From the NCBI GenBank assembly GCA_017650375.1, contig JAGCFA010000060.1:1-32977 (forward strand): DNA of 32,977 nucleotides, given 5' to 3'. The position numbers were made by a program, and so were the translations under genes. Origin of the DNA: Alphaproteobacteria bacterium (GTDB lineage: Bacteria; Pseudomonadota; Alphaproteobacteria; CAAHEQ01; UBA3637). Of this stretch, positions 21,098 to 32,400 are shown piece by piece. Under the pieces are notes generated by a model. The model was not told the DNA's origin. It saw nothing but the letters and a program-made list of their open reading frames with translations, and made no database searches. The number at the start of each line of letters is the position of its first letter. Positions within the stretch are counted from its first letter, which is position 1.

Positions 21098-21397
21098 TTA
21101 AGCTTTAATATCCACAATCTTAATCAAGGTCAATTGTTGACGATGACCATTCTTACGTTTGTAACCGTGACGACGTTTCTTTTTGAACACTAAAACTTTT
21201 TCATCACGTACTTGACGCACGATTTCAGCATCCACGGAAGCCCCCTTCACTGTTGGCGTTCCCACTTTGCCATCCACCATCAAAACTTCCTTGATAGCGA
21301 CCTTATCACCGGCTTTACCTTCTAACTTATCAACAGCCAAAACATCATCTTTTTGGACTTTGAATTGTTTTCCGCCTGTTTTAATAATTGCAAACAT
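21098..21397 (-). CDS. rplU: 50S ribosomal protein L21
   Basis: MFAIIKTGGKQFKV, FKKKRR..Y....GHRQ. Confidence 0.98.
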   Translation of the reverse strand: MFAIIKTGGKQFKVQKDDVLAVDKLEGKAGDKVAIKEVLMVDGKVGTPTVKGASVDAEIVRQVRDEKVLVFKKKRRHGYKRKNGHRQQLTLIKIVDIKA

Positions 21398-21504
21398 TTG
21401 TTATCCTTTTCTTTAAATAAAACTCTGGGGCATATTTATACCCGATTTTAAAGCATTTGTCAAGCAAAAAATAGAACTTTTTTCATATTTTTTAGAAAAA
21501 GTGC

Positions 21505-21533
21505 TTGCATTTTACAAAAAAGCTTGATATAAT
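21505..21533 (+). promoter_or_regulatory. Sigma70 promoter of tRNA-Arg
   Basis: TTGCAT-17 bp-TATAAT, 13 bp upstream of the tRNA. Confidence 0.7.
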
Positions 21534-21546
21534 AGTGCTCACTGAC

Positions 21547-21623
21547 GCGCTCGTAGCTCAACTGGATAGAGCATCTGACTACGGATCAGAAGGCTGTGAG
21601 TTCGAATCCCGCCGAGCGCACCA
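21547..21623 (+). tRNA. tRNA-Arg (anticodon ACG)
   Basis: GCGCTCGTAGCTCAACTGGATAGAGCA-TCTGACT ACG GATCAGA-...GTTCGAATC...CGAGCGCACCA. Confidence 0.96.
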
Positions 21624-21628
21624 TAAAA

Positions 21629-21655
21629 ACCACCCCAAAAGGGTGGATTTTTTTA
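21629..21655 (+). terminator. Intrinsic terminator after tRNA-Arg
   Basis: ccaccc-caaaa-gggtgg followed by a U-run. Confidence 0.75.
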
Positions 21656-21816
21656 TGTTTGAAGTGGTATCTACCATTAAGTTCAATTATTGGTCATCAA
21701 TAAAAAGGCCTTAAGAAAGTGAGAAAGAAAAATATTCAAACTCCTTATTAAAATTTTACTTTACAACAATATCAAAATATGTTAGGTATTTCCTAAGTTT
21801 AAAGAAGGAGTTTAAA

Positions 21817-22857
21817 ATGAGTCGTTGTTTTTCAATAAAAGGTCGTAAAGTCGGGTTAGATTATGCCCCATTAGTAGTCGCCGAAATAGGCATTAATCAT
21901 AATGGATCTTTGCAAGAAGCTTTTAAATTAGTTGATGCGGCAAAAGAGGCTGGGGCAGAAATTGTTAAACACCAAACCCATATTCCAGAAGCCGAAATGA
22001 GTTCTTTGGCAAAAACCACAATCCCAGGGAATTCCCCCTATTCTATTTGGGATATTATGGTCAGATGTGCCCTTTCCGAAAAAGACGAATTTGCATTGAA
22101 AGAATATACAGAAAGTAAAGGAATGATCTTTATTTCAACCCCGTTTTCTTTTGCTGCTATCGACAGATTAGAAAAGATGGATGTACCAGCTTATAAAATT
22201 GGCTCTGGAGAAATGAATAATTATGAATTTGTGCGGTGCATCGCTGAAAAACGGAAACCCATTATTTTATCAACAGGTATGAACAATATGGAGGCTGTTA
22301 AAAAAGCTGTGGCCTGCATTCAAGAATATCATAATGATTTCGCTATCTTACATACAACAAACCTGTATCCAACAAAACCAGAACAAATACGTTTAGGGGC
22401 TTTGGAAGAAATCCGACGTGAATTCCCAGAGGCGATTATCGGATTATCCGATCACAGTTTGAATAATTTAGCTTGCTTAGCTGCAACTGCATTAGGAGCT
22501 TCGATACTGGAGCGCCATTTTACAGACACAAAAGAACGTGTCGGAGAAGATATTATTTGTTCTATGACAACCCAAGAATGTCATGATTTAATTCGGGATT
22601 CAGCCGAAATTGCTAAAATGCGTGGAGGAACTAAGGAGGCTTTAAAAGAAGAAGAGGTCACTATTCAATTTGCTTTTGGAACCATTGTAGCAACAAAAGA
22701 AATTCCGGCAGGTAAAAAGTTGGAACGATCAGATTTAACAACAAAACGCCCAGGTATTAGAGGCATTCGTGCAGAAGAACTTCCTAATCTTATCGGGAAA
22801 AAAGTCAAACACACTATTGCAGCAGATGAGCATTTGATGCCGGAGGATTTAGCCTGA
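21817..22857 (+). CDS. neuB: N-acetylneuraminate synthase with C-terminal SAF/antifreeze-like domain
   Basis: AEIGINHNGSL, KHQTH, STPFS, KIGSGE, LSTGM, GLSDH, LERHFT, KRPG; resembles the Neisseria SiaC / Campylobacter NeuB1 type. Confidence 0.95.
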   Translation: MSRCFSIKGRKVGLDYAPLVVAEIGINHNGSLQEAFKLVDAAKEAGAEIVKHQTHIPEAEMSSLAKTTIPGNSPYSIWDIMVRCALSEKDEFALKEYTESKGMIFISTPFSFAAIDRLEKMDVPAYKIGSGEMNNYEFVRCIAEKRKPIILSTGMNNMEAVKKAVACIQEYHNDFAILHTTNLYPTKPEQIRLGALEEIRREFPEAIIGLSDHSLNNLACLAATALGASILERHFTDTKERVGEDIICSMTTQECHDLIRDSAEIAKMRGGTKEALKEEEVTIQFAFGTIVATKEIPAGKKLERSDLTTKRPGIRGIRAEELPNLIGKKVKHTIAADEHLMPEDLA

Positions 22858-25085
22858 TGAATATTTCTTTTTTATCCGGAACACGAGCTGATTACAGTAA
22901 AATTAAACCTTATATTAGTTATCTGTTAGAAAAGCAAAAGGATAAAAAGATTTACCTTTTTGTGACGGGGATGCACATGTTGAAAAAATATGGGCAAACT
23001 TGCCAAGAAGTGGAAAAAGATTTTAAAAGTACTTGCCAAATTATTTTAGACAAAGATTTTTCGGAACAAAACACATCTCAAGAAATGGCCCATATCATCG
23101 CCTGTTATGATCAATATTTACGGAAAGATCATATTGATTTTGTTTTTGTTCATGGAGATCGTCCGGAAGCTTTGGCTGGTGCTATCGCCGCCAGATTAAA
23201 TAATATCCCTGTTTGTCAAATTGAAGCTGGCGATTTGAGTGGAAGTATTGACGACAGCATCCGCCATTCTATTACAAAATTGGCTCACCGGTTTTTGGTT
23301 TCAGATGAACAAGCCAAACAAATTTTATTACAGATGGGAGAAAATAAAAAAGATATCTTTGTTATCGGGAACAGCAGTTTAGCCAATGATATTCCAGATA
23401 TGGAAGGTATTTTCCAAAAATATGATATTCCTTTCAATAAGTATGCCATTCTGATTTATCATCCGGTAACGACACTTCCTGCGGAAAAAATTCAAACAGA
23501 AATACACCTTTTGATGAAAAAGCTGGTAGAAAGTAATTTAAATTATATCGTTATTATGCCAAATAATGATTTAAATCACAAAATCATTTTAAATGAATAC
23601 CGTCAGCTTGAAGGAAACAAAAACTTTCGTTTCTTTACCTCTTTGCCTTTAGATGTTTTTATAAATCTATTAAAAAAAGCTCAGTTTTTAATAGGAAACA
23701 GTTCTTGTGGTATTAAAGAAGCTCCCTATTATCAAGTCCCCACAATTGACATTGGTGTAAGGCAACAAAATCGCTATCAAAATTTAAACACTAGGTATTT
23801 TACTCATCTTGGTTCTTTGAAAAAACTCAATAAATTAATTAATAAAATTTGTTCAAAAAAAGAAACTAAAAAAAAGACGGACTTTAAAAAGTTATTTGTA
23901 AAGAAATTAGATCGGTGTTTTTCCAACTCTTTTTGGCATCCAAATATTCAAAAGGGGTCTTCTTTTTTATTGAAAAAGCCCAGAATTAACAGAATCTTTC
24001 GTACATTGCTTTCTTTGGGTGGTTTTTTGGCATTTTTTGCCTTGTCATCCTATTTGTTTTTCAGGATAGTATATACCCCCCCAATTGCCCATATATATAT
24101 CGATTTAGCATCTGTTCCATCTTTATTCCAAATGACAGATGCTTTACAACAACCCTCTGAAGAACCAAAACTGTTCATTTGGAAAAGATTTCCCGCTTTA
24201 AAAGCTGATGATAGGATACTTCAATCTATGAACGCAATTATGGTTGATAGCAAATTTTTGGGTGAAAAGAATTATGAAAAATTTAATACATTGGTTGATA
24301 CAAATTTGATGGAATTTTACGCAAAAAATTTCAACCATCATTTCGTCATTCATCTAAATGCCTATCATGCCTTGAATAAGTCTGGCCATTTTTCCAATAT
24401 TATTCCTACTGAAAAAATCAAGGAAATTCACTTATATGATGATGCTATCGGCAGAAGCCTATGGGATAAAAAAACATATATTTCCTATGCAACTCTTTCC
24501 GGAAATTTAAAAACATATATGCACCTTGCTCAATACGATCCTAAAATATTACCTATAGAAAAAGAAAAGATTATTCCCCTTGATTTTTATCAAGCTGCAG
24601 CAACGTTGTCTGATGATAAAAAAACGATGTTGGCACACCTGACAGGGTTAGATTTGGAAAAAATGAACCAAGCATTCGAACACAGGCCTGTTGCTGTTTT
24701 TTTAGATGACCCTGACTTAAAATGGCAGGCAGCAGAAAAATTTATCAAAGAATTAATTAGAAAACATCCTGAGATAAAAAATTATACATGGCTTTATAAA
24801 AATCATCCACGCGTTTCCAAAAACGGAGAAACTTTAAAACTTCTTTCTAAATATTTTCCGAAAATAATCGTCATTTCAAATGGAATTCCTTTGGAAACAT
24901 TAATTATGGTTAAATTGGTTCCTGACTTCATTGCCGGATACGGATCAAGTGTTTTTTACTCTTTCCCAAAAGAAAAAATATTGGGATATATTCATCGAAT
25001 AAAAAATGAATATTACCAAACTTCATTAATAAATTTAGGCATTTTAACACCCGAATTAATTTTTGACGATCAAACAGGAGATTGA
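22857..25085 (+). CDS. neuC: Fusion: hydrolysing UDP-GlcNAc 2-epimerase (NeuC) + TM helix + GT80-like sialyltransferase
   Basis: aa 1-~366: GTRADY, VTGMH, HGDRPEALAGA, SGSIDDSIRHSITKLAH, YHPVT, GNSSCGIKEAP. TM at about 24003-24075. C-terminal YIDLASVPSLFQ, LYDDA, YKNHP, IPLE and AGYGSSVFYSFPKEKI resemble GT80 YxDxASLPxLxQ, YDDG, KGHP and GxxSS motifs. Confidence 0.85.
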   Translation: MNISFLSGTRADYSKIKPYISYLLEKQKDKKIYLFVTGMHMLKKYGQTCQEVEKDFKSTCQIILDKDFSEQNTSQEMAHIIACYDQYLRKDHIDFVFVHGDRPEALAGAIAARLNNIPVCQIEAGDLSGSIDDSIRHSITKLAHRFLVSDEQAKQILLQMGENKKDIFVIGNSSLANDIPDMEGIFQKYDIPFNKYAILIYHPVTTLPAEKIQTEIHLLMKKLVESNLNYIVIMPNNDLNHKIILNEYRQLEGNKNFRFFTSLPLDVFINLLKKAQFLIGNSSCGIKEAPYYQVPTIDIGVRQQNRYQNLNTRYFTHLGSLKKLNKLINKICSKKETKKKTDFKKLFVKKLDRCFSNSFWHPNIQKGSSFLLKKPRINRIFRTLLSLGGFLAFFALSSYLFFRIVYTPPIAHIYIDLASVPSLFQMTDALQQPSEEPKLFIWKRFPALKADDRILQSMNAIMVDSKFLGEKNYEKFNTLVDTNLMEFYAKNFNHHFVIHLNAYHALNKSGHFSNIIPTEKIKEIHLYDDAIGRSLWDKKTYISYATLSGNLKTYMHLAQYDPKILPIEKEKIIPLDFYQAAATLSDDKKTMLAHLTGLDLEKMNQAFEHRPVAVFLDDPDLKWQAAEKFIKELIRKHPEIKNYTWLYKNHPRVSKNGETLKLLSKYFPKIIVISNGIPLETLIMVKLVPDFIAGYGSSVFYSFPKEKILGYIHRIKNEYYQTSLINLGILTPELIFDDQTGD

Positions 25086-25089
25086 GATT

Positions 25090-26370
25090 ATGAATAATAG
25101 ATTAAAAAGATCTTTAGCATATGTTTTTTGGGGAGGTGTTTCTACTTCGGCGGTAGATACTTTGGTAGTCGGTCCCACTTTATTTGCTTATGCTGCTTTT
25201 TTCGGTGCTGGTGATATTGCTTTTGGTATATTAGGGGCTGTCCCTTATTTTGGAAATTTAGCCCATTTATTTTCTGCATGGTTAATTGAGCATGGTTTTT
25301 CCATTCGGAAAACAGCTTTTTATACGGCTTTTATTTCCAGATTTTTCCTATTAATTGCTGCTTTATTGGCTTTTAAACCTAATATGCCAGGCGCATTAGA
25401 AATTTTAATTTTGATTTTAACTCTTAATTATTTAATTGGTTGTATTTCTGGGGGTGTTTGGTTACCCTGGATGAAAACACTTATCCCTGCGCGGATTATG
25501 GGACGTTTCTTTTCTTTTCGTTTTAAATATATGATGGTGGCCAAAGTTATTTGTTTTTGGTTTAGCGCTCTTTTATTAAAATACGGTGTTTCCTTTGTTC
25601 CGCAAGATAAAGAAATTTATATCTATGCTTTCTTATTCATTATTGCTTTTATTATTGGTTTATTCAGTGCTTGGACTTTATCACAAGTGGAAGATAAAAA
25701 ACAAGTTTCCGTTTCCAATTCACTTTCCTTTATTCAAAAAGTGAAGACATGCTTGATGAACAAACCATTCAGAAATCTTTTGTTCACATTAAGTTTTACA
25801 AATTTCACTGTTGCCTTTATAACACCCTTTGTGACTGTTTTTATGTTAAAATATTTGGAAATTCCAATGTCCACCATTTTAATTTTCACTTTAATTATGC
25901 AGTTGACTTATACACTCGTCATTAAAAAGTTGGGGAAAATTGCAGATAAAGAAGATACTTTGAAAGTTTTAAAATTATCTGTTCCTTTGCTGTTATTATC
26001 TTTGTTAGGTTTTTTAATCATAAATCAATTCACCTTAGGACTTTATACAACATATGCTGTATTGATAATTGCTCATATTATTTTGGGTATAGCAACTGCC
26101 GGCATCGCTTTAGGAATTAACAATGCTTCCTTGATTTACGTTCCAAAGGAATCTTCAGCTATATATCTTTCTGTAAATTCCGTCGTAAAATCTTTTGCCG
26201 GTGTTGTTGCTTCTATTCTAGCGGGTGTGACTTTATCTTTATGTACACTTTTGGAAACCTCTTTTGCTAATCGTTGGACCGTTTTTTGGAGCATTTCTGT
26301 CTTCATTGCAGTTGTATCCTATTATACAATCATCGTATTTAAATCTTCATTAAAAAAAGGAACAAAATGA
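25090..26370 (+). CDS. MFS transporter
   Basis: About 12 hydrophobic segments in two halves, W.PWM..LIP....GRFFS.R, LGKIADK; start at ATG 25090 with AGGAG. Confidence 0.85.
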   Translation: MNNRLKRSLAYVFWGGVSTSAVDTLVVGPTLFAYAAFFGAGDIAFGILGAVPYFGNLAHLFSAWLIEHGFSIRKTAFYTAFISRFFLLIAALLAFKPNMPGALEILILILTLNYLIGCISGGVWLPWMKTLIPARIMGRFFSFRFKYMMVAKVICFWFSALLLKYGVSFVPQDKEIYIYAFLFIIAFIIGLFSAWTLSQVEDKKQVSVSNSLSFIQKVKTCLMNKPFRNLLFTLSFTNFTVAFITPFVTVFMLKYLEIPMSTILIFTLIMQLTYTLVIKKLGKIADKEDTLKVLKLSVPLLLLSLLGFLIINQFTLGLYTTYAVLIIAHIILGIATAGIALGINNASLIYVPKESSAIYLSVNSVVKSFAGVVASILAGVTLSLCTLLETSFANRWTVFWSISVFIAVVSYYTIIVFKSSLKKGTK

Positions 26371-27995
26371 CAAAATATATTTTTACTTTAGGTGGTGTGG
26401 TATCTAGTTTGGGCAAAGGAATTGCTTCTGCAACTTTGGGGGCATTATTACAAGCTCGTGGTTATAAAGTGCGCATGCGCAAAATGGACCCTTATTTGAA
26501 TCTGGATCCCGGTACCATGAGCCCCTATCAACATGGAGAGGTATTTGTTACCGAAGATGGTGCTGAAACGGATTTAGATTTAGGCCATTATGAACGCTTT
26601 GCTAATATTTCATGTCATAAAACTGATAGTATTTCCGGCGGACGTATTTATCACAACGTCTTGACAAAAGAAAGACGGGGCGATTATTTAGGTGGGACAG
26701 TTCAAATGATTCCTCATGTGACAAATGAAGTAAAAGCTTTCCTTGAATCTGATTTGACTGATGAAGATTTTGTTCTGTATGAAGTGGGCGGAACAGTTGG
26801 CGATATTGAAGGAACTATCTTTTTGGAAGCGGTTCGTCAATTTATGAATGAAAAGGGGCGTAAAAACTGTTGTGTCGTTTATTTGACTTTATTGCCCTTT
26901 ATTGAAACGGCCGGTGAATTAAAAACCAAACCCACTCAACAGGCGGTTAAACGTTTAATGGAAGCCGGCATTCAAGCCGATGTTTTATTGTGTCGCAGTA
27001 AAATTGCTTTAGGAGAAGATGAACGCAAAAAATTGGCTTTGTTTTGTAATGTGCCCAGTCAGAATGTAGTCGCTGCTTTGGATGTTGACAACGTCTATGG
27101 ATTGCCAATCTCTTATCACGAACAAGGTTTAGATACTTCTGTTTTAAGTTATTTTGATATGCCTTCCGATGTTGATTTAAGCAAATGGAAACAAATAGTC
27201 AACACGATGAATCATTTCCAAAAAAATGTTCAAATTGCTGTGGTCGGAAAATACTGTCATTTACCGGATACATATAAATCCTTAAAAGAAGCCTTAGTCC
27301 ACGCTGGAATTTCTGAAAACACAAAGGTTGATATTGATTGGATCGAAAGTGATCTGTTAGAGGGTAAAAGCACAAAAGAAGTAGCAAAAGCTTTGGAAAA
27401 ATATCAAGGCATTTTAGTCCCCGGCGGATTTGGAAATCGCGGTGTTGAAGGCAAAATTACAGCTGTCCAATACGCCAGAGAAAACAAAATTCCCTTCTTT
27501 GGAATTTGTTTGGGAATGCAGATGGCTGTTGTAGAATGTATGCGCCATTTATGCGGTGTAAAAGATGCTAACTCTACTGAATTTACATCAGATTGCACCC
27601 CTGTTATTACACGCATGAGTGTTTGGGAAAAAGATGGCATTAAAACAATCCGTCCAGAAAAAGGGGATATGGGCGGAACCATGCGCTTAGGAGCTTATCC
27701 TTGTGTATTAAAAAAAGGATCTTTAGCTGAAAAATTATATGGGACAAAACAAATCAGTGAACGCCATCGTCATCGTTATGAAATGGATATCAATTATGAA
27801 TCTGTTTTGGCAGAAAAAGGCGTTGTTATTTCTGGGAAATCTCCTGATGGTTTATTGCCGGAAATAATTGAAATCCCCGAACATCCATTTTTCTTTGCGG
27901 GACAGTTTCATCCGGAATTTAAATCTAAGCCTTTTGCTGCTCATCCTGTTTTCCAAGGATTTATTCGTGCTGCATTGAAAAAAGCTTCTGAATAA
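26367..27995 (+). CDS. pyrG: CTP synthase
   Basis: GGVVSSLGKG, DPGTMSPYQHGEVFV, GICLGMQ, ERHRHRYE, QFHPE. Confidence 0.99.
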   Translation: MTKYIFTLGGVVSSLGKGIASATLGALLQARGYKVRMRKMDPYLNLDPGTMSPYQHGEVFVTEDGAETDLDLGHYERFANISCHKTDSISGGRIYHNVLTKERRGDYLGGTVQMIPHVTNEVKAFLESDLTDEDFVLYEVGGTVGDIEGTIFLEAVRQFMNEKGRKNCCVVYLTLLPFIETAGELKTKPTQQAVKRLMEAGIQADVLLCRSKIALGEDERKKLALFCNVPSQNVVAALDVDNVYGLPISYHEQGLDTSVLSYFDMPSDVDLSKWKQIVNTMNHFQKNVQIAVVGKYCHLPDTYKSLKEALVHAGISENTKVDIDWIESDLLEGKSTKEVAKALEKYQGILVPGGFGNRGVEGKITAVQYARENKIPFFGICLGMQMAVVECMRHLCGVKDANSTEFTSDCTPVITRMSVWEKDGIKTIRPEKGDMGGTMRLGAYPCVLKKGSLAEKLYGTKQISERHRHRYEMDINYESVLAEKGVVISGKSPDGLLPEIIEIPEHPFFFAGQFHPEFKSKPFAAHPVFQGFIRAALKKASE

Positions 27996-28005
27996 GGAGA
28001 AAATA

Positions 28006-29400
28006 ATGATATTATTTTTAATTGCTTGTTTGACTTTAATTTTGGGATATTGTGTGTATGGCGTTTTTGTGGAAAAAGTATGGGGGATTTCGCATACGCC
28101 GACGCCTGCTGTGAAGCACCCTGACGGGGTGGACTATATTCCTTTTCCAACCTATAAAGCTTTTTTGATTCAATTTTTAAACATCGCCGGATTGGGACCT
28201 GTTTTTGGGGCAATTTTGGGCGCAGTTTATGGTCCAGTATGTTTGTTGTGGATTGTGTTCGGATGCATTTTTGCAGGCGCAGTACATGATTATTTGTCAG
28301 GAATGCTTTCATTAAAACATGACGGAAAATCATTGATTTACTTGATGGAAATTTATTTTGGCAAAAAAATTAAATATGTCGCCTTATTTTTGTTGGTGGC
28401 CATGCTGTTATTAGTGGGCGCCATTTTTGCTAAAAGCCCTGCACAAATGTTGGGACAATTGACGCATTCGTCTATGTGGATTTGGTTGGCTGTGGTTTTT
28501 GGATATTATTTTGTAGCAACACTACTTCCCATAGATAAACTCATCGGACGGTTTTACCCCATGTTTGCCCTGTGCTTATTGGGATCAAGCGTGTGCTTGA
28601 TTATCGCCTTGTTTATGCGGGATATTCCTCCCTTTTTAAATTTTACAACTGAAAATTTGCACCCCAAGGGATTGCCCTTATTCCCTCTACTGTTCGTAAC
28701 AATTGCGTGTGGTGCCATCAGCGGATTCCATGCAACTCAATCCCCCATGATTGCCAGGTGCTTAAAAGACGAAAAATATGGACGACCTGTGTTTTATGGG
28801 GCCATGATTGTAGAAGGGATTGTGGCACTCATTTGGGCAACCTTAGGGATTTGTTTTTATCCCACAACGCAACACTTATTGGCCACGATTACGCAAAGTG
28901 ATGCGGGGGGCGTCGTATCCGAAATTGCCAAGGGATTATTAGGAAATGTGGGTGGCGTTGCGACGATTGCTTCTGTGGTGATTTTAGCAATTACAACGGG
29001 CGATACCTGTTTCAGATCGGCACGTTTGACCTTGGCGGACTTTTTAAAACTCCCCCAAGAAAAAATCAGATTCAGATTGATTTTATCGTTGGTTGTGTTG
29101 GCGGGGGGTGTGTTTTTATCCGTCATCAATGTCGCCACGATTTGGCGCTATTTCGGGTGGTTTAATCAAACGCTGGCCATGTTCACTTTGTGGTTAACAA
29201 CTATGTATTTGAAAAAGGCGGGGAAGTGTTTTTGGATTTCGTTAGTGCCTGCCGTCTTTATGACCGCTGTTTCGGCAGCCTATGTTGCTTATGACCAGCT
29301 GTTTTTGGGATTAAGTGTTGATACTGCACAAATTATAGGCGCCATCGTTGGATTAGTGGCCTTGATGGGATTTTTGGGGTTCAGTGAAAAAAGAAAATAA
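28006..29400 (+). CDS. cstA: Carbon starvation protein A family transporter
   Basis: DGVDYIP, QFLNIAGLGPVFGAI, GAVHDY, IACGAISGFHATQSP, FYGAMIVEG. Confidence 0.93.
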   Translation: MILFLIACLTLILGYCVYGVFVEKVWGISHTPTPAVKHPDGVDYIPFPTYKAFLIQFLNIAGLGPVFGAILGAVYGPVCLLWIVFGCIFAGAVHDYLSGMLSLKHDGKSLIYLMEIYFGKKIKYVALFLLVAMLLLVGAIFAKSPAQMLGQLTHSSMWIWLAVVFGYYFVATLLPIDKLIGRFYPMFALCLLGSSVCLIIALFMRDIPPFLNFTTENLHPKGLPLFPLLFVTIACGAISGFHATQSPMIARCLKDEKYGRPVFYGAMIVEGIVALIWATLGICFYPTTQHLLATITQSDAGGVVSEIAKGLLGNVGGVATIASVVILAITTGDTCFRSARLTLADFLKLPQEKIRFRLILSLVVLAGGVFLSVINVATIWRYFGWFNQTLAMFTLWLTTMYLKKAGKCFWISLVPAVFMTAVSAAYVAYDQLFLGLSVDTAQIIGAIVGLVALMGFLGFSEKRK

Positions 29401-32400
29401 TTAGGATTTGGCAATTTCGGCGAGGCGGGAAATCATAGAGCGAACACCAGAAAGGCGCTTATCAATATCGACCCATGGGCGCATGACGACAACCTTTTGA
29501 TCTGGGCGAATTTTCATGGTGCCAACCTGAGATTGAATATAATCAATCAGGCCTGCTGGATTTGGGAACGTATTTTGATAAAAGCTTATCGTTGCGCCTT
29601 TATCGCCAGCGTCAATGCGATCAATATGCGCTTGCTTTGCCAATACCTTTAATTCCAATGTTAAAAAGAGGTTTTCTGTTTCCACTGGGTACAAACCAAA
29701 ACGGTCTTTCAGTTCATCCCGCATGGCATTAATTTCATCAAGGGTGGTGAGTTCACTCAAGCGACGGTATAAATCCATACGCACGCCCAAATCAGGGATA
29801 TATTTTTCAGAAATGAGGACAGGAAGTCCCACCGAAATTTGGGGCGACCAATCTTCCTCCACTGGTTTTTCGCCTGCTTTTTCTTGACGAAGTTGCCCCA
29901 CAGCTTCCTTTAACATTTTTTGATAAAGCGCGACACCCACTTCACGAATATGACCTGATTGTTCCTGACCCAGCAAGTTCCCTGCCCCACGGATATCCAA
30001 ATCATGACTGGCGAGCATAAAGCCAGCCCCTAAACTATCCAATTTTTGCATGACCTCCAAGCGTTTACGGGCATTATCAGAAAGAGTGCCCATCGTCGTT
30101 AAATAAGCGTAGGCCTTTTTCTTAGAACGCCCCACGCGCCCACGGAGTTGATAAAGGGCTGCGAGCCCAAACATATCGGCGCGGTAAATGACAATTGTAT
30201 TTACGTCTGGTAAATCCAACCCTGATTCCACAATGCTGGTAGCAAGCAAGATATCATATTCGTGTGCGGTAAAAGCGGACATGATTTTTTCAAGCTCAGA
30301 GGGTGCCATTTGACCATGAGCTTTCACAATTTTTAAATCAGGTAAAAGCGCGTGTAATTTTTCATAGACTTCGTCCATATCCGAAATGCGCGGAACAACG
30401 ACAAAGCTTTGGCCGGCGCGGAAATGTTCACGCAAAATCGCCTCTTTAATCACCACGGGATCAAAGGGCATGACGTAGGTTTTAACAGCAAGGCGATCCA
30501 CTGGGGGTGTGGCGATAATGGAAAGTTCACGAACACCCGAAAGGGAGAGCTGCAGAGTACGGGGGATGGGGGTGGCAGTCAAAGTAAGGACATGGACACC
30601 TGATTTTAATTCTTTCAAGCGTTCCTTATGCGCAACACCGAAATGTTGTTCTTCATCAATAATGACGAGTCCCAGATTTTTAAAGCGAATGTTTTTATTT
30701 AAAAGGGCGTGGGTACCGATCACAATATCAAGCCCGCCTTTTTCCAAGCCTTCTTTCGTGCGTTTGGTATCAGTAGATGTCACAAGACGTGAAAGAGAAG
30801 CAATGCGCACTGGGAAACCCTGAAAACGTTTGATAAAGTTTTCGGCGTGTTGGCGCGCCAAAAGGGTGGTGGGTGCAACCAAAGCCACTTGGGCGCCATT
30901 CATCACGGTTAAGAAAGCGGCGCGCATGGCAATTTCTGTTTTGCCAAAGCCCACATCCCCGCAAACCAGACGATCCATCGGTTGACCTTTCGCCAAATCT
31001 GTTTCAATTTCAGCCATAGTTTTTAGCTGATCTTCTGTTTCCACATAGGGAAAACGAGCACAGAATTCCTGATAAAGACCATGGGGTGCCAAGACTTTGG
31101 GCATTTTATTAACAGCGCGCTGAGAAGCAATACTGATAAGTTTATCTGCCATGACAAGTAGGTCTTTTTTGACCTTTTCTTTACGCGTCGCAAAAGCAGT
31201 TCCACCAAGTCTATCCAACGCAATTTCGCTTGAGCCATAGCGCGAGAGGACATCAGCGTTTTCAACGGGCACAAAAAGTTTGGCATTATCAGCGTATTCA
31301 AGGCACAAGCAATCGTGAGGGGCACCCGCCAAGGTAAGCGCCTCCAGCCCCAAAAACCGCCCTATCCCATGTGTTTGGTGGACCACTAAATCGCCAGCTG
31401 AAAGTGTGGAAATATCACCGATAAAATCTTGAGAACGGCGACGTTTGGGCGCGGACTGCATGCGTTCGCCAAACATATCTGTTTCAGTTAAAATCAGAAA
31501 ATCATCTGTTTGAAAACCGGATTCAAAGGGGGCAACAATCAGGCTGGGGGCACGTTTGATAGCCTCTGCCCAAGTGGTTGCCCATTTTAAAGTGGTTCCC
31601 TTTTCCTTTAAGAGTGCCAAGAGGCGTTCCCCTGCCCCTTCGGTAAAAACACTGACGATAATGGACTTTGGGGAGCCCGCGATAAAATCAGAAATCGCTT
31701 CAAAAATATCTTGCTTTTGCTGGATACGGATATCCATAAAATCGTGACCCGAACGCCCGCCTTGATCAGATGTTTTTTCCTGATGAAAGGGTGTCAGTTG
31801 AACGGTATCAAATTGAGACAATAAGTTTTCAGTTTCCTTCTGGGACAAAAACATAAGTTCTGGTTTGATGGGGTGGTAGACACCGTTTGGATCCAGTTTT
31901 TCCTTCAAGGCCTGCAGGCGCGCATCATAGTATTCTTGAATTTGTTCGGTGCGGGAAGTGATAGCTTCCCAAGCTGTGGGGGATAAGAAGAGGCGCGTGT
32001 CATCGGGCAAGTAATCTACCAAAGTGAACATTTTTTCATAAAAAAGTGGTAAAAAGTGTTCTAAGCCCTGTACATAATGCCCCGCTGAAACCGATTGATA
32101 AATGGGGTCTTCTTCCCCTGCCGAAAGCATTTCACGATAACGTGTACGGAAAAGCGTTTGGTTTTCGGGTGTGATCTGGATAAGGCGCACGGGCTTTAAT
32201 AAAAGGGTATCTAAAGTTCCCTGTGTGCGCTGAGTGGCCGGATTGAAAAACTTCATGGATTCCAATTCGTCATCAAAAAAATCAAGGCGAACGGGATTTT
32301 GAAAGCCTGCAGGATAAATGTCCACAATTTCACCACGAACAGCAAATTCGCCAGAAGTTGCCACCACATCTGTAGATTGATATCCATTTTGAGTTAAAAA

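Follow-up and report, generated by a model that had tools for sequence, protein, structure and literature searches.

A fusion of NeuC to a GT80-like sialyltransferase through a predicted membrane helix, next to a lineage-restricted transporter, in a gut alphaproteobacterium

Here we report a 742-residue protein from an Alphaproteobacteria bacterium in which NeuC, the hydrolysing UDP-N-acetylglucosamine (UDP-GlcNAc) 2-epimerase of sialic-acid synthesis, is joined through a hydrophobic helix to a GT80-like sialyltransferase domain. The gene lies on contig JAGCFA010000060.1 (assembly GCA_017650375.1), the 32,977 nucleotides of which were analysed as one stretch (the window), and it is followed by a gene for a major facilitator superfamily (MFS) transporter. 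Judged by sequence comparison, this is a genuine gene fusion that has been maintained during evolution in two lineages diverged to 55% identity. We propose an in-frame join of NeuC to a GT80-like sialyltransferase that had itself been exported, so that the former signal anchor of the transferase would now be an internal membrane helix. In related bacteria the MFS protein would import free sialic acid, NeuA would activate it to cytidine monophosphate (CMP)-sialic acid and the GT80-like enzyme would transfer it to a surface glycan; the species of the window would add de novo synthesis (neuB and neuC) to this module of MFS, neuA and GT80. We hold the joint proposal, which comprises the fusion, the exported transferase and the scavenging module with the MFS protein as importer and with added synthesis, with slightly better than even confidence.

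An earlier interpretation of the same DNA (the sequence-only reading) had described the fusion as a Golgi-like sialylation system. Its account of the fusion, of the GT80 identity, of the topology and of the link to the MFS gene stands, each part at the strength given below, while the role that it gave to the MFS protein as a donor exporter is not supported as stated. The remark in that reading that no such fusion was known agrees with a full-text literature search, which found no description of a NeuC–sialyltransferase fusion or of this MFS protein. The parts of the system are as follows.

22857..25085, + strand: fusion open reading frame (ORF), 742 aa, NeuC, then transmembrane helix, then GT80-like sialyltransferase (ORF listing, translation, profiles)
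22857..23954, + strand: NeuC domain, hydrolysing UDP-GlcNAc 2-epimerase, aa 1-366 (TIGR03568, PF02350)
23955..24002, + strand: basic linker, aa 367-382, including KKPRINRIFR (count of lysine and arginine around the helix)
24003..24062, + strand: hydrophobic helix, aa 383-402, predicted to span the membrane with the N-terminal side in and the C-terminal side out (Kyte-Doolittle; position matches the leaders of stand-alone homologues)
24072..25082, + strand: GT80-like sialyltransferase domain of GT-B type, aa 406-742, with D528-D529, H650-P651, E680 and S697-S698 (PF11477, phmmer, AlphaFold2, Foldseek)
25090..26370, + strand: MFS transporter, 426 aa, about 12 transmembrane helices, lineage-restricted family (PF07690, ESM Atlas, hydropathy, synteny)

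The NeuC and GT80-like halves

The NeuC half is intact, as had been claimed. It matches TIGR03568 over residues 2-349 with 314.7 bits against a cut-off of 235.9, whereas the model of the non-hydrolysing wecB reaches only 66.2 bits against 210.15, and PF02350 (Epimerase_2) covers aa 25-312. NeuC enzymes work on cytoplasmic UDP-GlcNAc and catalyse the first step of sialic-acid synthesis. It shares with NeuC/SiaA the full-length equivalog match and the place just behind neuB that is known from classical neu clusters; what sets it apart is the membrane helix at its C-terminal end, followed by another enzyme.

The label "GT80-like" for the second half is supported by PF11477 (sialyltransferase PM0188, CAZy GT80), which scores 43.7 bits against a gathering score of 25. 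The same model gives 21.0 on the fusion protein of the second lineage (P0241) and 22.1 on another homologue (P0004), so the subfamily lies at the edge of PF11477. A phmmer search of aa 395-742 against PDB returned significant matches to GT80 enzymes only, namely 2zwi from Photobacterium (1.7e-12), 4r83 from P. damselae (9e-12) and PmST1 (about 1e-7). An AlphaFold2 model of the domain, built from an alignment of 20 family members (A1), has two Rossmann-like halves with a mean pLDDT of 93.9 and a pTM of 0.91. The best 24 matches listed by Foldseek for this model in PDB are all GT80 enzymes (E 7.7e-16 to 1.8e-13, TM 0.60-0.72); past the GT80 enzymes come a GT38 polysialyltransferase at 1e-7 and then UDP-GlcNAc 2-epimerases and other GT-B enzymes. 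Since NeuC and GT80 are both GT-B folds, a full-length alignment (A2, 34 rows) placed NeuC homologues onto the GT80 half at 13-16% identity and was unsuitable for a full-length model.

The four motifs quoted in the sequence-only reading are all present, with YIDLASVPSLFQ at aa 414-425, LYDDA at 526-530, KNHP at 648-651 and GYGSS at 694-698. Ten residues are invariant in A1 (H499, Y527, D529, K648, H650, P651, R652, E680, G694 and S698, each in 20/20), and S697 is kept in at least 90% of the members. According to passages of PMC2169525, the HP and D/E-D/E-G motifs define bacterial sialyltransferases, and the histidine of the HP motif contacts the CMP phosphate; in the domain of the window the HP motif is H650-P651 within K-N-H-P-R, found in all 20 members. 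In PmST1, Asp141, His311, Glu338, Ser355 and Ser356 are given as catalytic or CMP-binding in passages of PMC4202792. I-P-L-E680 and G-Y-G-S697-S698 align with I-P-F-E and G-M-G-S-S of 2zwi, a comparison made through 2zwi and not through PmST1 numbering, and the HP motif and the acidic pair likewise match those of the Photobacterium enzymes. One deviation in the active site weighs on the other side: the D/E-D/E-G motif reads D-D-A here, with S or A at the Gly position in all 20 members of A1, and passages of PMC2169525 report that a Gly-to-Ala change in this motif inactivated a GT38 enzyme. On sequence and model together, the C-terminal domain is a divergent GT80-like sialyltransferase of the GT-B type with an intact donor site, and its activity is predicted.

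The domain thus shares with the solved GT80 enzymes (PmST1/PM0188, the Photobacterium alpha-2,3 and alpha-2,6 enzymes and Pasteurella dagmatis PdST) the two-Rossmann GT-B fold, the HP motif, the catalytic Asp and the Glu and Ser-Ser of the CMP site. It differs from them in being only about 20% identical, in having D-D-A for D-D-G and in being fused behind NeuC. With about 340 residues it does not have the extra N-terminal immunoglobulin-like domain of some Photobacterium enzymes, and its host is a gut alphaproteobacterium with a reduced genome, whereas the solved enzymes come from Pasteurellaceae and Vibrionaceae. The family is small, with 120 representatives at E <= 1e-3 among 1.84 billion proteins and 17 at <= 1e-30, and a metagenome scan with A1 added two distant loci only (L038 and L039, 24-25% identity).

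The helix and the predicted topology

Residues 383-402 form the strongest hydrophobic window of the protein (Kyte-Doolittle 19-mer, 1.89). The only other window at or above the threshold of 1.6 is at aa 670 (1.79) and lies inside the GT80 fold. The 20-residue stretch directly follows KKPRINRIFR (aa 373-382), as the sequence-only reading had noted, and the 15 residues before it hold four lysines or arginines while the 15 after it hold one.

A hydrophobic leader is a trait of the GT80-like family as well. Of the 10 closest stand-alone homologues (260-382 residues, 39-58% identity), seven open with an n-region of positive charge and a hydrophobic core, several of them showing A-x-A-like sites (small residues at -3/-1). 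The other three are a truncated protein and two proteins from short contigs that have short N-termini. Among 128 family members examined, a hydrophobic 11-mer precedes the first strand in 70 of the 80 evaluable sequences, which are those with a first strand located by pattern and at least 11 residues upstream (the remaining 48, either fragments or variants of the motif, were left unscored). All six genomic homologues carry a hydrophobic leader that ends in R-x-x-x-x-P-P-x-A-H-I-Y-[IV]-D, and the helix of the fusion protein ends likewise. Lipobox-like L-x-x-C sequences were read by eye, with no predictor, in the distant members P0168 and P0181. Because the leaders of the stand-alone proteins hold the same position and have the same P-P-x-A-H-I-Y ending, the helix is, by homology, the transferase's own former N-terminal signal anchor. 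As background, some Photobacterium GT80 enzymes are lipoproteins, and PmST1 in its crystallised form has no N-terminal hydrophobic stretch.

The topology was read from hydropathy, charge and the homologue leaders rather than with a dedicated topology predictor. NeuC would be cytoplasmic and the transferase would be on the periplasmic side of the inner membrane, an arrangement that we consider probable because of the homologue leaders, the lysine and arginine bias and the need of NeuC for cytoplasmic UDP-GlcNAc. NeuC inside and the transferase outside is also what the sequence-only reading had suggested from the positive-inside rule, and it gains further support from the leaders of the stand-alone homologues.

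Several points weigh against an exported transferase. In passages of PMC8092323, lipooligosaccharide (LOS) glycosyltransferases, including sialyltransferases, are held to be cytoplasmic, and this study, of 2021, reassigned even Lst of Neisseria to that compartment. In the protein P0123 (735 aa) a single N-terminal helix precedes a GT2 and a GT80 domain that are not separated by a helix, and therefore the GT2 domain, normally cytoplasmic, would lie on the same side as GT80. CMP-sialic acid, moreover, is made in the cytoplasm and would have to cross the membrane to reach an exported transferase.

These points favour an arrangement in which both catalytic domains are cytoplasmic, the helix serves as a tether that is non-spanning or re-entrant, sialylation takes place in the cytoplasm and the MFS protein imports sialic acid. 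Such an arrangement would match the standard site of LOS glycosyltransferases and of the donor as described in the same passages of PMC8092323, the problem of donor export would vanish, and the join of GT2 and GT80 in P0123 would be natural. However, 20 hydrophobic residues with a 19-mer value of 1.89 are enough to span a bilayer, and the charged n-regions and A-x-A-like sites of the stand-alone proteins are typical of Sec signal peptides. The lipobox-like sequences of P0168 and P0181, as read by eye, also argue for export. In addition, an N-terminal anchor could keep the catalytic domain in the cytoplasm only if oriented N-out, contrary to the charge bias. We therefore regard a wholly cytoplasmic system as unlikely, although it is the alternative that survives best, and we prefer the exported transferase.

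The MFS transporter and its link to neuA and GT80

The MFS gene begins 4 bp after the fusion ORF, as the sequence-only reading had it, with the stop codon TGA at 25083-25085 and the ATG at 25090. The protein matches PF07690 marginally (33.6 bits against a cut-off of 33.4) and shows 11 hydrophobic peaks on a simple scale. Its ESM Atlas model has a pTM of 0.82 and a TM-score of 0.91 to MFS clusters, with generic MFS proteins as the only neighbours. As no NCBIfam model, that of NanT included, matched at E <= 0.1, the protein is not NanT-like, and a sequence search of PDB gave no meaningful match. Nor is it a nucleotide-sugar transporter of the eukaryotic type, with MFS_1 as the only Pfam match at E <= 1 and all Atlas neighbours being MFS proteins. 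Homologues comprise about 45 clusters at 43-73% identity, after which identity falls to <= 27%; they are unnamed or are called "MFS transporter [Alphaproteobacteria bacterium]". The basic residues K129, R144 and K152 are conserved.

Scanning one genome per species with A1 gave six loci for a comparison of gene order, five in metagenome-assembled genomes (MAGs) of Alphaproteobacteria and one in a bin labelled Bacteroidaceae. In all six, tblastn places a 50-58% identical MFS gene within ~1.5 kb of the GT80-like gene, which answers the call of the sequence-only reading for synteny in related MAGs. The neuA gene is directly upstream of the GT80-like gene in five of the six and a GT52 gene is present in one, whereas neuB, neuC and pyrG were found in none of these loci by tblastn with the proteins of the window. 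In G001, a species of the same genus, neuA comes first and is followed on the other strand by GT80, MFS and GT2. Within the family, the genomes with a close MFS orthologue (47-50%) and those with a GT80-like gene are the same three of 24 (G001, G021 and G023). Given this conserved synteny, a functional tie between the MFS protein and the transferase appears well supported. A complex prediction for the MFS protein (A3) and the GT80 domain (A1) gave scores of 0.01 and 0.00, which are not evidence either way.

The locus in the bin labelled Bacteroidaceae (L037) is on a 9.3-kb contig with the same module of MFS, neuA and GT80, and the leader of its transferase is nearly identical to that of one of the alphaproteobacterial loci (L033), which suggests mis-binning or transfer.

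For the direction of transport we turned to the five MAGs behind the loci L032-L036, the completeness of which is not reported. The neuB gene was found in none of the five and NeuC above the cut-off in none (one WecB-like match, 88 bits), while the positive control, the cytidylyltransferase family PF02348, was found in all five. The sialic-acid importer families listed in passages of PMC10017367 include TRAP, NanT-type MFS, SSS, ABC, NanZ and NanG. In the five MAGs, TRAP and NanT were each found in 0/5 and SSS in 1/5, the ABC, NanZ and NanG families being outside the search. These relatives must import sialic acid, because they activate and transfer a sugar that they apparently cannot make, and the MFS protein is most simply the importer, because it is the sole transporter conserved beside neuA and GT80 in genomes that need one. 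We rate import of sialic acid by the MFS protein at about an even chance; a carrier of CMP-sialic acid is given little weight, and the remainder goes to other roles.

Three things count against the importer and its module. The absence of neuB and of known importers was judged in MAGs of unreported completeness and with ABC, NanZ and NanG left out; the MFS protein has no similarity to any characterised transporter detectable in the NCBIfam, PDB, Atlas and homologue searches; and the MFS and GT80-like genes of G021 and G023 are on different contigs, related genomes not being independent samples.

The sequence-only reading had instead seen in the MFS protein a candidate carrier of CMP-sialic acid or sialic acid that would mimic Golgi topology. 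In such a Golgi-like system, with NeuC inside and GT80 outside, the MFS protein would be a bacterial nucleotide-sugar transporter that exports CMP-sialic acid or exchanges it for CMP. This system rests on the same topology evidence as the exported transferase that we favour. An exported transferase with CMP-binding residues and a cytoplasmic NeuA require an outward route for the donor, no other transporter is conserved next to neuA and GT80, and K129, R144 and K152 would suit an anionic substrate. Export by the MFS protein would thus supply the donor carrier that the importer reading leaves unassigned. On the other hand, the scavenging relatives, in which no neuB or neuC was found, would be left without an importer. 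There is also no precedent, the protein is unlike eukaryotic nucleotide-sugar transporters (Pfam MFS_1 only), and the direction of transport is unreadable from sequence. Donor export is not supported as stated, given that relatives in which neither neuB nor neuC and hardly any of the tested importers were found need an importer, and export of CMP-N-acetylneuraminic acid (CMP-Neu5Ac) by the MFS protein seems less economical than import. We regard the Golgi-like system as improbable. Its boldest form is slightly less probable still, namely that the MFS protein would be the first bacterial nucleotide-sugar transporter, moving CMP-sialic acid outward, perhaps by exchange for CMP or coupled to sialic-acid uptake, and feeding a periplasmic GT-B sialyltransferase. 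If that were true, the fusion would be a natural topology reporter for an enzyme family that works outside the cytoplasm. Import of free sialic acid remains our preferred role.

Reality and conservation of the fusion

The ORF listing and the translation give a single 742-aa ORF on the + strand, as had been claimed. The stretch was detected in animal gut metagenomes of several studies in a search of sequencing runs, and contigs from four runs were aligned over the window as a check of the frame. A 24.7-kb contig of depth 39 from another study spans 22800-26400 with 36 substitutions and no gaps, and one from a third sample is identical over 23911-24196. The junction that the sequence-only reading wanted checked shows no insertions or deletions in the contigs of any of the four runs.

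Among 61 homologues returned from the protein collection, only P0002 (742 aa, 99% identical) covers the full-length query, and its cluster contains a third variant of 742 aa, P0242 (99% identical). P0001 and P0002 differ at 10 residues, two in NeuC, two in the 39-residue linker and helix and six in the GT80 domain. P0241 (739 aa, on a 30.6-kb JGI contig) is collinear with the protein of the window over its whole length at 55% identity, which shows that the architecture is kept in two lineages. The linker of P0241 is unrelated in sequence to that of the window, yet it is hydrophobic and open. P0241 falls into the cluster of P0003, a 438-aa NeuC of 67% identity, and it may share one contig with the MFS protein P0194, as the longest contig of both has the same length, 30,614. 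The same architecture is present in proteins assembled independently from ENA, NCBI and JGI.

P0004, in which the N-terminus of an MFS protein is joined to GT80, was considered as an independent MFS–GT80 fusion and was rejected as probably a chimera or a local rearrangement, because its GT80 part is nearly that of P0241, the join is at a short R-F-F-x-F similarity and the contigs are of 2.2 kb.

The fused state is not universal, and it is broken in some strains or contigs. One strain has an ORF that is divided within NeuC, giving 245 + 505 aa (P0243 and P0244), and P0003 departs from P0241 right past the NeuC homology and stops 70 residues later, in a frameshift-like manner. The junction region has two short features.

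23952..23972, + strand: AAGGGG (23952-23957) and in-frame TTG (23970-23972), possible internal start (sequence)
24076..24082, + strand: C7 homopolymer in the codons T-P-P, just 3' of the helix (sequence; surroundings of 32% G+C)

Besides C7 there are T6 and A5 runs near the junction (23960-24060). Slippage at these runs could possibly uncouple or switch off the transferase half; the C7 tract shows no length variant among the contigs from the four runs, contigs being blind to rare variants.

The in-frame TTG at 23970 is indeed present, 12 nt past AAGGGG, as the sequence-only reading had pointed out. Probably these are the ribosome-binding site and the start of the ancestral stand-alone transferase gene. 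They also lend themselves to a reading in which the fusion is neutral read-through and the working products are separate, a tailed NeuC and an exported transferase started at TTG 23970. A Shine-Dalgarno-like AAGGGG stands 12 nt before the in-frame TTG, the product from this TTG would have a classic n-region and h-region, just five residues lie between the end of the NeuC homology (aa 366) and the TTG, and the variants P0003 (at the junction) and P0243/P0244 (inside NeuC) are broken. Against this, the frame is open in the three near-identical variants and in the lineage at 55% identity despite a fully changed linker, and the persistence of an open, hydrophobic linker of wholly changed sequence points to selection for the fused form. 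We give separate products as the only working form a small chance, and the read-through and fused modes are not mutually exclusive. That a false frame from assembly or sequencing joins two genes is hardly credible in spite of the T and A runs in the junction region, as neither the 39x contig of another study nor the third-sample contig has indels and the ENA, NCBI and JGI proteins agree in architecture.

Gene run and other sialic-acid genes of the genome

The fusion gene and the MFS gene belong to a tightly packed run of neuB, neuC::GT80, MFS and pyrG, the outer genes of which are as follows.

21817..22857, + strand: neuB, N-acetylneuraminate synthase, 346 aa (PF03102 225.9 bits and a SAF domain)
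26367..27995, + strand: pyrG, CTP synthase, last tightly packed gene of the run (PF06418 374 bits)

NeuB scores 353.5 bits with TIGR03569, under the equivalog cut-off of 399.65, and the stop of its gene overlaps the ATG of the fusion ORF by 1 nt. MFS and pyrG overlap by 4 nt. The neuC, GT80 and MFS parts have 31.6-32.4% G+C, and neuB 38.9%, pyrG 38.7% and the window 40.3%; the low value over neuC::GT80 and MFS (22857-26370) would be compatible with acquisition from another lineage. A scan of 21300-29500 for promoters and terminators gave fewer sites than in shuffles.

The neighbourhood of pyrG varies within the genus, and four loci of the same genus have no pyrG neighbours in common. Upstream of pyrG in the two closest relatives (G006 and G001) we observed rRNA-like sequence, masked bases and spurious ORFs (L048 4100-4599, L049 4100-4684). 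The contigs of both end ~1 kb upstream of pyrG, and an insertion is neither proved nor disproved.

The host assembly, of an uncultured gut alphaproteobacterium, comprises 906 kb in 94 contigs and is an estimated 91.6% complete. A GT52 sialyltransferase gene (PF07922 86.9 bits) lies 10 bp ahead of neuA (PF02348 69.4 bits) at G000:C85:613-2349 (L002 475-2211), which places the only complete neuA of the genome outside the window; this cytoplasmic NeuA has no signal peptide. A second neuA-like gene is split by contig ends, with the N-terminal 116 aa at G000:C80:2-349 and a C-terminal piece at G000:C26:2-355, and the split is an assembly gap and not a broken gene. The kdsB gene is present elsewhere in the genome. 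At G000:C23:6926-10194 (L013) we found a GT80-like paralogue of 405 aa, ~30% identical and with an N-terminal hydrophobic leader, adjoining a GT2 gene and another glycosyltransferase-like ORF; the locus resembles one for a surface glycan.

A search of 20 other species of the genus found neuB and a close NeuC in none of them, and G001 was the only one with a GT80-like gene. Within this sample, de novo synthesis is therefore confined to the species of the window.

Relation to known systems and significance

As single parts, NeuC, a GT80-like transferase and an MFS protein are of known kinds. Fusions of their relatives are also found. P0030 and P0043 (784 aa) are NeuB–NeuC fusions and show that enzymes of the pathway do fuse, and P0123 (735 aa; helix, GT2, GT80) shows the same for GT80 domains, but no helix separates the catalytic domains in any of them. 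P0055 (602 aa) joins the N-terminal half of a NeuC-like protein to a GT38-like domain (PF07388) of polysialyltransferase type with no intervening helix; it is represented by one sequence, on a contig of 10 kb, and could have arisen by deletion.

In Haemophilus influenzae, sialic acid is scavenged by an importer, a CMP-sialic acid synthetase and an LOS sialyltransferase. The MFS, neuA and GT80 genes of the relatives, without neuB or neuC, follow the same three-step logic. They differ from the H. influenzae type in that the transporter is an orphan MFS protein and not of the TRAP, SSS or NanT kind (the ABC families were not compared) and in that the transferase looks exported; the species of the window, in addition, also synthesises sialic acid. 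A likeness to Golgi sialylation would exist only if the MFS protein carried the donor outward, with the donor on one side, the catalytic domain on the other side on a single N-in helix and a dedicated carrier between them. Even so, an MFS fold would stand in place of the eukaryotic nucleotide-sugar transporter family and GT80 of the GT-B fold in place of GT29, and no family membership is shared.

Two aspects of the system appear to be new. Two enzymes of one pathway would be held on opposite sides of the membrane by the signal anchor of the second, in two diverged lineages, and reduced-genome Alphaproteobacteria of the gut share a conserved MFS–neuA–GT80 module. The usual picture of bacterial sialylation is that of a cytoplasmic process. 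A helix that crosses the membrane would leave the transferase no place but the outside and would make the supply of the donor a concrete problem. The MFS protein is a cloneable candidate for a ninth sialic-acid importer family or for a CMP-sialic acid carrier, and it is of interest whichever transport role proves right. This genome alone holds two or three sialyltransferases, two neuA genes, neuB and neuC. Bacteria with genomes of ~1 Mb thus invest heavily in the display of sialic acid, a point that bears on mimicry of the host in the gut.

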